A stretch of 64,000 nt of DNA from a virus. Shown one piece after another: positions 7,950 to 13,204 of the stretch; the stretch's first letter is position 1, and each line of letters begins with the position of its first letter. The stretch lies in UHGV virus genome UHGV-0318153. The stretch is one strand, 5' to 3'. The position numbers were made by a program, and so were the translations under genes. The notes beneath the pieces were generated by a model. The model searched no databases. It was given only the letters and a program-made list of their open reading frames with translations, and was not told the DNA's origin.

Positions 7950-8480
7950 ATGTTTTATATGACTGTTGATACTTGTGTTCATTGTCAGCATTGTATAAAT
8001 AGAATGTTTAATATTGGTCGTATTATTGATATTGGCATAGGATGTATAACTTCTGATATTGTTATTCTTTTGCCTATGTATGGTAATAAGAATTTTCGTA
8101 ATAAATTATTAGAAGATTTAAAAGCTATTTGGCTTGAATATACAGGACGAAATATGCTTGAACAATGTTACATTACATATAATATTAAATGTTCTACTTA
8201 TAATTGTTCATACAAACTTTATGAGAATAGTATGAGTAATTGTCGTAATATATTGAATGAAGAACTTATGAGAGTTCCTTATAGATATATGATTATGATT
8301 AATTCTACTCGTACTATTTTTCCTAATGGTTGTTCTAATAAGATTATCAATTATGGAAAGTATTGTTTTTATAATATAAAATTTCCATTTGATAAATATG
8401 ATGAAGCTGAGGTAAAGAAAGCTATAAAAACAGATTTTGTTAATGCTATAAAATATTATAATATGAGAAGATATACATGA
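7950..8480 (+). CDS. Cys-rich hypothetical protein (176 aa)
   Basis: ORF with several CxxC pairs. Confidence 0.45.
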   Translation: MFYMTVDTCVHCQHCINRMFNIGRIIDIGIGCITSDIVILLPMYGNKNFRNKLLEDLKAIWLEYTGRNMLEQCYITYNIKCSTYNCSYKLYENSMSNCRNILNEELMRVPYRYMIMINSTRTIFPNGCSNKIINYGKYCFYNIKFPFDKYDEAEVKKAIKTDFVNAIKYYNMRRYT

Positions 8481-9757
8481 TAAGAATAGAATGTTATGAT
8501 GTGGAAGTACTTCCTAACTTTTTTAGTATTTGTTTTATTGATTTAGCTAGTTATCTTGATACTTTTAAAGATGTTGTAGATAGTAAAGGAAAACCAATTC
8601 CTATTATCCAAAAAATATCTGTTAAAGAGTTATTACAAAGACTTGATGCTGTAAAATGTAAACAATTTTATATTACAGATAAAGATGATAGTCAGTTATT
8701 TTCAATGATAGAATATATTAATGGATTTAAAGCTAATGAACTTTATCCTCGTAGTGATTTATATGGTTATAATAGTCAAAGTTATGATAATCTTATGATT
8801 GCTGCTTTATTAATGTATTTTGGTCAAACAGATACTACAAAAGAACTTATTACAAAACTTTATGAAACATCAAAAAAGATAATTGAATTACAAGACAATA
8901 AAGATGGTGCTAAGAATGATTTTTTATTAAGAAGTTTGAGAAAATATCCATTACCATTTAAAGGTGTAGATGTTATGAAAATATTTGCTTTGAATAAAGC
9001 TGGAACTATTGTTGATAATAAAACTGGAGAAAAGAAATATGTTCCTAAAGGTTTAAAGCAAACTAGTATTAATCTACAATGGTATGAACTTCTTGAATAT
9101 GAGTTACCTGATATATGTGATAAAGATTATTACTATTATGCAAAAGATACAAGATATAAAGGTTATGATTATAAAAAGCTCACCAATATAATTGATAAAT
9201 GGGATAGATATATAATAGATGAATATATTCCAGATATGATGCATTATAATAAAAATGATGTATTTATTGTTTGTGAAATTGTTCGTCTTAATCCCGATGA
9301 AATTAAATCTCGATATGCTGTTTCTGCTTCTTATAAAGTAGATGTTCTTAATAGTAGTCGTAGTAATATGGCTAATGTTTTATTTCAAAAGTTTTACACT
9401 AAATATAGTGGTATTCCTTATGAAAAATGGAAAGATGGAAGAACTAAAAGAACTGCTATGAATTTAGGTAAGATTATTTTTAATTGTGTTGAATTTAAGA
9501 CACAGCAATTACAAGACTTACTTAAAGAAATAAAAAAGACTACATTATATAGAGTTAGCAAAGATGCTTTTGAGAAAGAAGTTATTATTGGCGATGTTAA
9601 TTATACTCTAGCTACAGGTGGACTTCATAGTAAAGATAGACCAATGGAGATATGGAGTACAACAGATTGGGATATATCTGGCAATTCCTCTACGGGCAAG
9701 CTACAAAAAGATAATGCTTTTACAATTATACATTGGGACATAAGTGACGCAGTGTCG
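8477..9757 (+). CDS. family-B DNA polymerase, exon 1 (3'-5' exonuclease domain and N-terminal half; ends inside motif A ...DAVS)
   Basis: Exo I-like YDVEV, Exo III-like YNKNDVF; terminates in D-A-V-S with the YPSIM remainder of motif A beginning the ORF at 10807. Confidence 0.75.
9685..9705 (+). repeat. dispersed element copy, A orientation, inside DNA polymerase exon 1
   Basis: ttcctctacgggcaagctaca; translated SSTGKLQ (a different frame from the LYGQA copies). Confidence 0.9.
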
Positions 9758-10808
9758 TAATCTCGTGAACTGCTGGAAACTCCTAAAGCTGTTATTACTA
9801 AAACAGAAGATGAAAATCTAAATGGCAATAGTTACGAAAGTAGAAAAGAAATAACAGATGATATATGGAATAATATTCCTAAGTATTTTAATAATGGACA
9901 ATCAGCAGCTAAGACTACTCATTATATTGCGAAATATAATAATAGTAAAGTTCATCGACTATCCGAAAGGAGTACACATTGTTGATAAATGTGGAAGTGC
10001 GAGAAATCTTGTTAATAATATTGCATTTTGAAAAATTAGATATTATCTTTGTCTATATGTTTAATTTTTAATAATATTGATTATGGTAAAATTTAATTTT
10101 TCATTAGTTAAAAAAGAAGTTTATGGTGTTGTTAGAGGTAATGGTGTTATTCCTTATGGAGATTTAGCAAAATACTCTAATGTTATTGGTGTTTATTATA
10201 TTAAATCTAAAACTACTAATAAACAATATATTGGAAGTAGTAAAAATGTACAAAGACGTATTGGAAAACATTTTAGTGAATTAAAATATAATAGACATAG
10301 AGATAAAGATTTGCAAGAAGAATATAATTTATATGGATATTCTAATTTTGAATGCGGATTATATGAAACTTGTAATATAAATGAACTTCTTATTAAAGAA
10401 AAAGAATGGCAAATTAAAATTGGAATAGATAATCTTTATAATCAGAAAATCTCTGGATATTATATTACAGAAGAATTAAGACAAATTCATGCTAGAGCTG
10501 ATAAAAGTTCACATAAAACTAAAGAATATAGAGAAAAAATGAGTAATATAAAAAGTAATTATATAGCTCAATATAATCTTGATGAAACTTTAATTAAAAT
10601 TTGGAATAGTTCTAAAGAAATATGTGATACTCTAGGTTATACTAGAAGTGTAATATTATGTGGATGTAATGGTAGTAAAAAACATCCTTATGGTTATTAT
10701 TGGAGATATTGTGATAGTAAAGGTAATTTATTAGAAAACGGTAGAAAAGGAAAACAAGATTAAGATATAGTCAGGTTCATAGTGAAAGCTATGATGTTAA
10801 TGTGCGTC
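9755..10808 (+). mobile_element. group I intron (IA-like) interrupting DNA polymerase motif A and carrying a GIY-YIG homing endonuclease ORF
   Basis: R-like element GTTCATCGACTATCCG at 9949-9964 and S-like element AAGATATAGTC at 10762-10772 form a P7 (GACTA/TAGTC); P9-like hairpin at 10776-10793; G at 10806 immediately before exon 2; splice junctions uncertain to about +/-3 nt. Confidence 0.7.
10077..10763 (+). CDS. GIY-YIG homing endonuclease (intron-encoded)
   Basis: GVYYIK...YIGSS...R..H..E motif order; C-terminal GYYWRY resembles HEG DNA-binding modules; stop codon overlaps the intron P7 3' strand. Confidence 0.8.
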   Translation: MIMVKFNFSLVKKEVYGVVRGNGVIPYGDLAKYSNVIGVYYIKSKTTNKQYIGSSKNVQRRIGKHFSELKYNRHRDKDLQEEYNLYGYSNFECGLYETCNINELLIKEKEWQIKIGIDNLYNQKISGYYITEELRQIHARADKSSHKTKEYREKMSNIKSNYIAQYNLDETLIKIWNSSKEICDTLGYTRSVILCGCNGSKKHPYGYYWRYCDSKGNLLENGRKGKQD

Positions 10809-11847
10809 TTATTATCCTTCAATTATGGCTGCATATAGTGTTGCACCTGCTCATATGGTTACTAGTGCATTTCGTAATCTTATTCAATGGATGAAAGATA
10901 CTCGTGTTACTGTAAAACATAGTGAAGAAGCAATTATAGATGGTATTCCTAAAGATGTCCTTGCACTTGTATTAAAAATTGTCATTAATAGTATATATGG
11001 TAAATTTGGAGATGAAAATAGTCCACTTTATGATAGACTTGCTACTCTTCAAGTTACTATAAATGGTCAATTAATGATTCTTATGCTTTGTGAAGAACTT
11101 GAACTTAATGGTATTCATGTATTGTCAGCTAATACAGATGGTATTATGGTTAAGTTGTATGAGAAAGATAAAGAATTATTTAATGATATAGCTGATAGAT
11201 GGCAAGAAAAAACTAAAATGAAAGCAGATGCTGATATTCTTCATTGTCTTATAGCAAGAGATATAAATTCGTATATAGCCTTATTTAGAGAAGAAAAGAA
11301 AGGAGTTAGAAAATTAAAGACAGAATTTAAAGGAGCAATGAATCCAGATATGTATCGTATTGACTTACAAAAAGGATATGATAAACCTATTGTTGCTAAA
11401 GCTGTTTATGAGTATTTTATTAATAAAGTTCCTATAATGGAAACTCTTCAAAAAGCTACTAATATTCTTGATTTTTGTATGACTCAAAATGTTGGTAGAC
11501 AATTTCATGTTGAAGAAACGAAAATTGTTAATGGAATGCTTACACGAATAGTTTGTCAGCGATATGTTAGATTTTATATTAGTAATGATGGATATACAAT
11601 AGAAAAAGTTCATAATATTACTAATAGTAGGTCAAGAATGGCAGCTGGAGTTAAAGTTTGTGTTGTTAATACTTTGGATGATACTAATATTAGTTTAAGG
11701 AATATTGATTTTAAATATTATTATAATGAATGTATGAAATTAATAGACCCAATTAAGTTAGGTATTACTCCTAAAGGTAAAGGAAAAAGTAAAATTCGAA
11801 AATTTAGTGGAATGTATAATACTTTATTTGATGATGTAGATGAATAA
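10807..11847 (+). CDS. family-B DNA polymerase, exon 2 (polymerase domain)
   Basis: begins (S)YYPSIM completing motif A; motif B KIVINSIYGKFG (Kx3NSxYG); motif C SANTDGIMV (DTDS-like). Confidence 0.8.
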   Translation, partial: SYYPSIMAAYSVAPAHMVTSAFRNLIQWMKDTRVTVKHSEEAIIDGIPKDVLALVLKIVINSIYGKFGDENSPLYDRLATLQVTINGQLMILMLCEELELNGIHVLSANTDGIMVKLYEKDKELFNDIADRWQEKTKMKADADILHCLIARDINSYIALFREEKKGVRKLKTEFKGAMNPDMYRIDLQKGYDKPIVAKAVYEYFINKVPIMETLQKATNILDFCMTQNVGRQFHVEETKIVNGMLTRIVCQRYVRFYISNDGYTIEKVHNITNSRSRMAAGVKVCVVNTLDDTNISLRNIDFKYYYNECMKLIDPIKLGITPKGKGKSKIRKFSGMYNTLFDDVDE

Positions 11848-13204
11848 AACATATATTGATATAGCTAATAAATGGAGAGAAAATAAATGTAAAGGTTGTT
11901 GCATACTTCTTGAACCTTATAATCCTGCTATATTAATAGAATATATAATGAAAAGAAGTATAGAAAAAAATCCAAATATAAAAGCACTTATTGTAGTTAA
12001 AGATTATGATGTTAGAACTCGTATTGTCAATTATTTAAAAGAAAACAATATAAGTCCTAATAATTATGCTTGTATTACTTCTGTTTATGTAAAAATAGGT
12101 GTACATTATGATTATGATATAGCTTTTTATGTTGGATTAACTGATATGTATCAAGCAAATTATATTAATAGTATAATTAAATATGGATTATTTATTATAA
12201 CAACAGATAAAATTCATCCTGATTCTCGTGCTTATCTTTATAAATATTTTCCTATATTAAATCAAGCTGATTATGCTGCTAAATATGCAACTAAATATAG
12301 CTTGCCCGTAGAGGAAATTCACATTGGAGTACAGTTTGCTAGACAAGATGAAAAAGAATTATATGATAAATATAGTGATTATATAAATAAAACTATTAAT
12401 ATATTTGGTAGCCTTGAAAATATAAATCGTGCTAGAGTAGGAGATAAAACTACAGGTCAATCTGCTGAAGCTGTAAGATTATCTATTGCTCAATATAATG
12501 GTTGGAATGAACATCTTGATGTAACTATACCTTTTAATAAGCAAATAGATGATTTATTTAATCCTATTAGTATAGAAGAAAGATGTTCTACTGCTTATAA
12601 TATTTTTCGTGAACGTAATAATTTAGTAAATAATAATGTAAATAAAATACCTATAATTATAGATTTATTAAATGGAGAATTAAAAGATAAAAAAGTAATA
12701 ATAGTTAGTAAGAATACTATTCTTGCAACAGAAGTTTATAAAGCTCTTAATAAAAATAATATACCATGTGGTGAATTTCATAATGATATTGAAGCTAGAC
12801 CTGTTTATGATGAAAATGTTGGAGATTTTATAAGATATAAGACTGGTAATCGAAAAGGAGAAGTAAAAAACTTCGCCGCACAAGCTATTTCCAGCCTTTC
12901 TGTGCAATCTTTCAACTCAAACAATATTAGAGTATTATCCATTAAAAATTGTTCGTCAGACAGCCTAGAAATCACGTGTGATGCGATTATATTCATGTCA
13001 CCAAATTGTTATAATATAAAAGAGTTCCTATATAGATATAATAAACTTACTTTTAATGTTGATAAAATAAAAATCTATAAATTATATATGATAGGTACAA
13101 ATGAAGAAAATGATTGTAGTCGGCTAAAACCTATTAATGAAAATCATGAAATAAAAAATATTACAGAGAATGAAAAATATTATGTTCAAAGTTTTGGTAG
13201 TTAA
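11840..13204 (+). CDS. hypothetical protein (454 aa), possibly ATPase/helicase-like; locally GC-elevated segment at 12870-12990
   Basis: long ORF; no clean catalytic motif recognised. Confidence 0.5.
   Translation: MNKTYIDIANKWRENKCKGCCILLEPYNPAILIEYIMKRSIEKNPNIKALIVVKDYDVRTRIVNYLKENNISPNNYACITSVYVKIGVHYDYDIAFYVGLTDMYQANYINSIIKYGLFIITTDKIHPDSRAYLYKYFPILNQADYAAKYATKYSLPVEEIHIGVQFARQDEKELYDKYSDYINKTINIFGSLENINRARVGDKTTGQSAEAVRLSIAQYNGWNEHLDVTIPFNKQIDDLFNPISIEERCSTAYNIFRERNNLVNNNVNKIPIIIDLLNGELKDKKVIIVSKNTILATEVYKALNKNNIPCGEFHNDIEARPVYDENVGDFIRYKTGNRKGEVKNFAAQAISSLSVQSFNSNNIRVLSIKNCSSDSLEITCDAIIFMSPNCYNIKEFLYRYNKLTFNVDKIKIYKLYMIGTNEENDCSRLKPINENHEIKNITENEKYYVQSFGS
12297..12316 (-). repeat. dispersed element copy, B orientation
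   Basis: atagcttgcccgtagaggaa; translated SLPVEE. Confidence 0.9.

Follow-up and report, generated by a model that had tools for sequence, protein, structure and literature searches.

A probable subgroup IA group I intron with a GIY-YIG homing endonuclease gene interrupts motif A of the family-B DNA polymerase gene of a crAss-like phage

In this study, we have analyzed a window of 64,000 nucleotides (nt) from the virus genome UHGV-0318153, the DNA of a crAss-like phage, and we conclude that its family-B DNA polymerase (PolB) gene is very probably cut inside catalytic motif A by a mobile group I intron. This reading is drawn from sequence, structure, covariation, homology, and the sporadic distribution among relatives, and we place its probability at roughly 0.93. 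The predicted intron occupies 1,061 nt (positions 9742 to 10802) and contains a gene for a GIY-YIG homing endonuclease; it is supported by partial matches to the Rfam Intron_gpI model and by comparison with homologous introns that carry no open reading frame (ORF). The exons, the intron and all of its parts lie on the plus strand. An intron of this kind had been proposed in a sequence-only reading of the same DNA, and the proposal is upheld by the core elements, by a guide sequence that forms both P1 and P10, by covariation, and by the Rfam matches of ORF-less relatives; the interval then given, 9755 to 10808, is corrected here to 9742 to 10802.

Exon 1 (8477 to 9741) was defined from the ORF list and from alignment to the intron-less PolB proteins of cr110_1 and p-crAssphage, and PHROG 1252, a DNA polymerase family, matches it and exon 2 alike. 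It encodes the exonuclease domain up to the catalytic Asp of motif A and ends in CAT TGG GAC AT (H W D I-). Exon 2 (10803 to 11847) starts with T GCG TCT TAT TAT CCT (-I A S Y Y P) and carries the remainder of motif A together with motifs B and C, as judged from alignment to the motifs of archaeal PolB and from a Pfam DNA_pol_B match of 23.8 bits (cutoff, 23). When U9741 is joined to U10803, a single open frame of 769 amino acids (aa) containing HWDIASYYPSIM results; the predicted nucleotide junction of the ligated exons is CATTGGGACAT followed by TGCGTCTTATTATCC, which can also be written ATACATTGGGACAT followed by TGCGTCTTATTATCCTTC. In the predicted spliced product, DIASYYPS, KIVINSIYG, and NTDG align in order to DFRSLYPS, KILANSVYG, and DTDG of the Thermococcus-type polymerases, for which archaeal PolB structures have been solved, and the motifs stand in the family-B order A (DxxSLYPS), B (KxxxNSxYG), and C (DTD).

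The two polymerase frames described in the sequence-only reading are both present: the upstream ORF (8477 to 9760) ends in HWDISDAVS and a stop codon, and the downstream frame, for which YYPSIM and motifs B and C had been noted, reads ASYYPSIMAAY, KIVINSIYGKFG, and SANTDG. The junction that had been suggested between them, DAVSYYPSIM or DAVSSYYPSIM with an ambiguity of about 3 nt, does not hold. Intron-less PolB alleles read HFDI-ASYYPSIMA (cr110_1) and HADI-NSMYPSIIA (p-crAssphage), the consensus among intron-less relatives being H(F/A)DI(A/N)S(Y/M)YPSI, and they have no counterpart of SDAV. We prefer the junction of HWDI to ASYYPSIM because the intron-less alleles lack the four-residue insertion and because P1 and P10 specify the joining of 9741 to 10803. 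Alignment of the spliced product with the intron-less alleles of related phages, a check that had been recommended, showed motif A restored in agreement with those relatives (HFDIASYYPSIM). The 5' splice site therefore precedes the last sense codon of the upstream ORF by 16 nt, and the earlier placement of the 5' end was about 16 nt too far downstream.

Both splice sites coincide with the pairing of a single internal guide sequence. The intron begins AAGU-GACGCA-GUGUC-GUAA, with the 5' splice site between 9741 and 9742, directly after U9741, and 11 contiguous nucleotides of this start (9746 to 9756) form a guide whose pairing with the two exon ends falls precisely on the junction that restores the frame. 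In the P1 hairpin (9737 to 9756), exon nucleotides GACAU (9737 to 9741) pair with GUGUC (9752 to 9756), and a U9741·G9752 wobble marks the 5' splice site; in P10, GACGCA (9746 to 9751) is perfectly complementary to UGCGUC (10803 to 10808), the six bases with which exon 2 opens, and this helix was also seen in the minimum free energy (MFE) fold. The UAA that stops the read-through of exon 1 (9758 to 9760) is directly 3' of P1, and the SDAVS-stop at the end of the upstream ORF results from translating the P1 loop and the guide. At the other end, the terminal G (omega-G, G10802) precedes a 3' splice site between 10802 and 10803 that restores the frame and motif A; a G occupies the same place at the frame-restoring junction of all nine related introns. 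The guide changes in step with the exons: among the compared loci, which are given here by L numbers, P1 is GACGU/GCGUC in L003 and L074, P10 is GACGAU/GUCGUC in L003, and compensatory changes between guide and exon also occur at four other insertion sites.

Archaeal inteins are classically inserted in motif A of family-B polymerases, and removal of the insert at the protein level was considered for that reason. This explanation was rejected outright: exon 1, the endonuclease ORF, and exon 2 are in three different frames, with stop codons at 9758 to 9760 and beyond, and a Pfam domain search of the insert found no Hint/intein domain, GIY-YIG being the sole domain present.

The manual P1-to-P10 fold that had been proposed as a check on the intron placed elements P, Q, R, and S and helices P1, P3 to P9, P7.1, P7.2, and P10; the intron is without P2, and the four elements align to the Intron_gpI consensus. 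P3 is formed by UCUCGUG (9761 to 9767) and UGCGAGA (9998 to 10004; L003 has UUUUGUG/CGCAAAA), the 3' strand being placed by the Rfam alignment, the MFE fold, and a per-sequence table. Element P, AACUGCUGGAAA (9768 to 9779), comprises J3/4 and the 5' strand of P4, a helix of 7 base pairs (bp) in which 9770 to 9776 pair with 9902 to 9908; the 3' strand is contained in element Q, AAUCAGCAGC (9900 to 9909). Between them, P5 (UCC at 9781 to 9783 with GGA at 9896 to 9898) bears a peripheral extension, P5a-c (9781 to 9898 in all), which was seen in the MFE fold, the RNAalifold prediction, and the pair counts, and the P6/P6a hairpin (9908 to 9949), seen in the folds and by RNAalifold, has an inner helix of 9921 to 9928 with 9933 to 9940. 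Element R, GUUCAUCGACUAU (9950 to 9962; Rfam-aligned part GUUCAUCGACUA at 9950 to 9961), comprises J6/7 and the 5' strand of P7, and element S, AAGAUAUAGUC (10762 to 10772), comprises J8/7 and the 3' strand. P7 itself has 6 bp, GACUAU (9957 to 9962) with AUAGUC (10767 to 10772), as had been predicted from R-like and S-like motifs. The S-like motif, AAGATATAGTC, is where it had been placed (10762 to 10772) and overlaps the endonuclease stop codon (10761 to 10763); the R-like motif, GTTCATCGACTATCCG, is present as described, with its coordinates amended from 9949 to 9964 to 9950 to 9965. The P9-like hairpin and terminal G before exon 2 were also correctly recognized, P9 being UCAUAGU-GAAA-GCUAUGA (10777 to 10794), with compensatory changes in six of its seven pairs.

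Two further hairpins, P7.1 (UCC-GAAA-GGA, 9962 to 9971) and P7.2 (CACAUU at 9975 to 9980 with AAUGUG at 9988 to 9993), occupy 9962 to 9993 in the MFE fold and were found in all of the relatives, the sequence of P7.2 differing in every one while the hairpin is always kept. Because these hairpins lie between P7 and the 3' strand of P3, a mark of subgroup IA in the classification of Michel and Westhof, the intron probably belongs to that subgroup. P8 is a perfect 9-bp helix of AAUCUUGUU (10005 to 10013) with AACAAGAUU (10753 to 10761), which closes a 739-nt loop that houses the endonuclease gene; in the ORF-less introns L140 and L074, P8 is closed by short loops.

The Rfam search that had been suggested as a further check succeeded in part. 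Against 9650 to 10900, Intron_gpI (RF00028; curated gathering score, 50 bits) gave two half matches, one from 9761 to 10004 (21.8 bits; E = 0.0055) that spans P3, P4, P5, P6, J6/7-P7, and the 3' strand of P3 and one from 10682 to 10794 (20.6 bits; E = 0.012) that spans J8/7-P7' and P9. The match falls into two subthreshold halves because the 739-nt ORF-bearing loop of P8 splits the model. The ORF-less twin of this intron, L140, matches over the whole model (46.3 bits; E = 8.6e-11), and L074/L147, a sister intron that likewise lacks an ORF and occupies the same PolB site, exceeds the cutoff with 67.4 bits. A joint search of L003 to L005 at E ≤ 1 gave no match, which we attribute to the filters, the search space, and the splitting of the model by an ORF.

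Folding and covariation were consistent with the manual placement. In the MFE fold of an ORF-trimmed copy of the intron in which 6 nt of the P8 loop were retained (z = -2.66 relative to shuffles), P3, P4, P5 with its extension, P6, P7.1, P7.2, P8, P9, and P10 were formed; P1 and P7 were missed, the guide being taken up by P10 in this fold and P7 being unseen because it forms a pseudoknot with P3. From a MAFFT alignment of nine related introns, RNAalifold predicted P4, P5, P5a, P5b, P6, P7, and P9. Over the 47 pairs counted, 96.5% of the pair cells were canonical, compared with 31 to 49% when the partners were slid by 1 to 3 columns, and two-sided changes were found in 20 pairs, compared with 2 to 7 when slid; none of 500 shuffles reached any of the observed covariation measures. 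MAFFT could not keep P1, the 3' strand of P3, P7.2, and P8 in register, and these helices were tabulated per sequence by script rather than counted: the strands of P3, P7.2, and P8 differ in sequence among the relatives yet can pair in each of them, and between the window and L003 there are compensatory changes in P1, P10, P3, P8, and P9. In a control that compared the pairing of each strand with its own and with foreign partners, the mean helix lengths were 7.4 versus 4.8 bp for P9, 5.7 versus 3.9 bp for P1, and 5.6 versus 4.0 bp for P10.

These data bear directly on the T4-gene-43-style alternative that the sequence-only reading had named, namely, a genuinely split polymerase in which polypeptides of 427 aa (ending in SDAVS) and 340 aa (starting with MAAYSV) are made around a free-standing GIY-YIG gene and no splicing occurs. 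It is true that both fragments are ORFs, that the second contains an ATG (10825), and that GenBank records of relatives such as cr3_1 annotate "DNA polymerase" twice around a homing endonuclease; however, this ATG is the first in fragment 2 and comes after SYYPSI, so that exon 2 has no start codon upstream of that motif and the two-piece enzyme would be without most of motif A, which is invariant among the intron-less relatives and the solved PolB structures. Furthermore, the spacer is conserved as an RNA structure with compensatory changes and not as a protein, ORF-less spacers at the same site (L140 and L074) are recognized over their full length as group I introns, and the guide pairs with both exon ends. 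A polymerase translated in two pieces is, in our judgment, highly improbable.

The GIY-YIG ORF reported earlier within the gap is confirmed. It encodes 226 aa (10083 to 10763; ATG at 10083, with a TTG at 10077), and its stop codon (10761 to 10763) overlaps the 3' strand of P8 and element S. The protein matches Pfam PF01541 (38.7 bits against a cutoff of 22.6; E = 1.3e-9), PHROG homing endonuclease families, and the catalytic domain of I-TevI (1MK0; E = 7.7e-10). In the alignment to 1MK0, Y38, Y49, R59, H63, and H72 of the ORF correspond to Y6, Y17, R27, H31, and H40; for Glu75 and Asn90, the matching residue can be placed only to within one or two positions. The ratio of nonsynonymous to synonymous substitution rates (dN/dS) relative to the 92%-identical homologue in L024 is 0.15, and the endonuclease is therefore maintained as a protein under purifying selection. 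Its C-terminal residues 142 to 213 were also found by PHROGs in a family annotated as HNH endonuclease, and we infer that this region binds DNA. Since sister introns hold different GIY-YIG-like ORFs in the same P8 loop, and two relatives hold none, the ORF is a separable module. The P8-loop leader upstream of the endonuclease start (10014 to 10082) is conserved between the window and L003 (TTGAAAA-TTAGATATTATCTT). Within it, TATCTTTG (10044 to 10051) fits TAnnTTTG, which we take to be the -7 promoter motif of Bacteroidetes, and this region may be a candidate promoter of the endonuclease's own.

Several observations weigh against the intron reading. At the Rfam gathering threshold, the whole window has no Intron_gpI match, and even the contiguous, ORF-less L140 remains, at 46.3 bits, just under the 50-bit score. 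P1 has only 5 bp. P4 and P7 are invariant in the nine-intron set and neither support nor contradict the structure, and P7 formed part of the search pattern by which the relatives were found. Finally, the own-versus-cross pairing control did not discriminate P3 and P6, helices that are AU and pyrimidine rich, with G·U pairs allowed; we therefore put no weight on that control. The low Rfam score, the absent P2, and the short P1 are what would be cited for a decayed intron that splices inefficiently, which would leave PolB a pseudogene or dependent on a protein cofactor or a second polymerase. Yet the exons are intact and share 94 to 98% protein identity with those of relatives that carry the same intron, the core helices and the guide are all intact and covary, the endonuclease is under purifying selection, and no second polymerase gene was noticed in the ORF list of the 64-kb window, although that search was not exhaustive. 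We regard decay as very unlikely and continue to favor an intact group I intron.

Splicing of this intron would follow the usual course. In the pre-mRNA, the guide GACGCA-GUGUC (9746 to 9756) would first pair with the exon 1 end GACAU to form P1, with U9741·G9752 at the 5' splice site, and an exogenous guanosine held in P7 (9957 to 9962 with 10767 to 10772) would attack after U9741. The guide would then position exon 2 (UGCGUC) through P10, G10802 would fill the guanosine site, and the exons would be ligated to give an mRNA for a continuous 769-aa polymerase with the motif A sequence D-I-A-S-Y-Y-P-S. Because the catalytic Asp is in exon 1 and SYYPS is in exon 2, an active polymerase would need splicing. 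It can be envisioned that the I-TevI-like endonuclease cuts intron-less polymerase alleles of coinfecting phages near this site, presumably with repair copying the intron in.

The distribution of related introns is in keeping with such mobility. A scan of IMG/VR for the exact 15-mer of the R element yielded more than 120 loci, at least 73 of which also have an S element downstream. At the same PolB site, introns are present in L024/L138 (96% identical, with the endonuclease), in L003/L103/L114 (with a related endonuclease), and in L074/L147 (279 nt, ORF-less). IMG/VR contigs with similar PolB proteins include L138 (94% identical) and L140 (98%), and L140 (IMGVR_UViG_3300045988_098176, 936 to 1285) carries an ORF-less copy of the window's ribozyme of about 350 nt at the same site, with a 34-nt P8 loop in which the initial ~25 nt of the loop in the window are retained. 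The difference between L140 and the window is a presence/absence polymorphism of the ORF between near-identical phages. Among 22 PolB relatives in IMG/VR, 13 are uninterrupted, 8 have the motif A intron (6 with an ORF and 2 without), and 1 has an intron in motif B; this patchiness at high host-gene identity would be expected of a homing element. Endonuclease-bearing, ORF-less, and intron-less alleles thus coexist among phages whose polymerases are 94 to 98% identical, which is evidence for a cycle of intron gain and loss that appears to be active in an abundant lineage of gut phages.

The same scaffold was also found at further conserved positions in replication genes of crAss-like phages: in SF1 helicase genes, between HKS and QGS (L027, 560 to 1528; L035, 1875 to 2150) and between YIG and DAS (L032, minus strand, intron at 408 to 1692 in reverse-complement numbering); in PolB motif B, between GKLG and FEKG (L053, 10821 to 11878; L141); and in one further gene (L040, minus strand, 10870 to 12036 in reverse-complement numbering; L079; L081). 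With PolB motif A, there are at least five sites, namely, two in PolB, two in SF1 helicases, and one in the further gene. At each of these other sites, the copy carries a guide that matches its own exons, its junction restores the frame and follows a terminal G, and its P8 contains either a different GIY-YIG-like ORF or no ORF. We lean, with some reserve, toward the view that these introns form one crAss-associated IA ribozyme family, a single scaffold retargeted to at least five replication-gene sites through changes of the guide and of the P8-loop endonuclease, with a live homing cycle in the alpha lineage.

Other interrupted genes were noticed among the database records. Matches to the intron core lie in or near helicase genes in MH552500.1 ctcc615 (L005, 1417 to 1580) and OQ198719.1 (71042 to 71098); an annotated GIY-YIG gene lies downstream of one of them, the other falls inside a "DNA helicase" coding sequence (CDS), and neither is annotated as an intron. 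The gene models of the helicase regions in these two records are probably wrong. In cr3_1 (NC_055874.1; L004, 3333 to 4339), two "DNA polymerase" CDSs flank a "homing endonuclease" far downstream of the motif A position; this interruption is probably another intron, and the Rfam search at E ≤ 1 gave no match at this locus.

The surroundings of the polymerase gene place the phage near the Crudevirinae, the nearest records having 71 to 75% nucleotide identity; none in the phage collection exceeded ~75% identity to the window. The region matches, at the same 71 to 75%, the helicase, uracil-DNA glycosylase, PolB, and SNF2 block of cr110_1 (Delmidovirus) and p-crAssphage (Carjivirus communis). Between the SF1 helicase gene and PolB lies a 176-aa ORF (7950 to 8480), for which Pfam and PHROG gave no significant match; crAssphage and cr110_1 have their "putative uracil-DNA glycosylase" in this position. 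Positions 1 to 64000 contain no tRNA or other Rfam family at gathering score, and core-motif and tblastn scans of the window found no second group I intron and no endonuclease paralogue.

The intron is a precisely mapped addition to a well-known type of element; its mechanism is textbook, and the general knowledge of introns is unchanged by it. Its practical value lies in annotation. Automatic pipelines either split such a gene into two "DNA polymerase" fragments and a homing endonuclease, as happened in cr3_1, or translate intron RNA, as in SDAVS-stop; base-exact splice sites permit correct annotation of the 769-aa polymerase, and the combination of guide sequence with R and S elements should serve for relatives. 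The coexisting endonuclease-bearing, ORF-less, and intron-less alleles provide a natural system for the study of intron homing and loss in uncultured gut phages. If the view of a retargeted family is true, the most abundant phages of the human gut would have a live homing cycle in their alpha (Crudevirinae-like) lineage, a lineage described as free of mobile-element insertions, and such a family could act in competition between coinfecting crAss-like phages.

The arrangement is reminiscent of the td intron of phage T4 (IA2) and its endonuclease, I-TevI. Both introns have the P, Q, R, S core and the P7.1 and P7.2 hairpins, in both the frame of the upstream exon runs into a stop soon after the intron begins, and the endonucleases have homologous catalytic domains, the GIY-YIG domain being N-terminal and a further region C-terminal. 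Unlike td, which interrupts the thymidylate synthase gene of a T-even coliphage and has its endonuclease ORF in P6a, the present intron is without P2, holds its ORF in the P8 loop, and interrupts a family-B DNA polymerase gene in a crAss-like phage of Bacteroidota. Introns of the IA type that self-splice and carry homing endonucleases also lie at conserved sites in the DNA polymerase genes of Bacillus phages SPO1 and SP82 (I-HmuI), the T7-like phage PhiI, and Staphylococcus phages Twort and K; those polymerases belong to family A and the endonucleases are mostly HNH enzymes, whereas here the polymerase is of family B and the endonuclease is GIY-YIG. Nucleotides 18 to 172 of the intron (window positions 9759 to 9913), which cover P3 to the P5 extension, share 71 to 78% DNA identity with group I introns of Clostridium phages c-st and D-1873 and of Bacillus cereus and Staphylococcus Kayvirus-type phages, and the 78% identical part in D-1873 is annotated "Group I catalytic intron." This similarity hints that ribozyme modules may have been exchanged between phages of Bacillota and Bacteroidota.

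A different solution is seen in some T4-related phages such as Aeh1, where the family-B polymerase gene 43 is interrupted by DNA with a homing-endonuclease-like ORF and the two parts (43A and 43B) are translated separately and assemble. Unlike that case, the present spacer contains a complete ribozyme with P1 and P10, and in exon 2 no start codon is so placed that motif A would be kept. Within the crAss-like phages, reports of group I introns with endonuclease ORFs concern the Delta and Zeta groups, where they interrupt core genes for replication and structure, PolB among them; these introns were detected through endonuclease protein domains, and the genomes of the alpha-gamma group were stated to lack mobile-element insertions (Yutin et al. 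2021, PMC7886860; 2023 review, PMC10136315). The occurrence of group I introns extends beyond these two groups: unlike the phages in which introns were reported, the window is nearest to the alpha-group Crudevirinae (cr110_1 and p-crAssphage), and here the ribozyme, the splice sites, and the guide have been mapped to the base.

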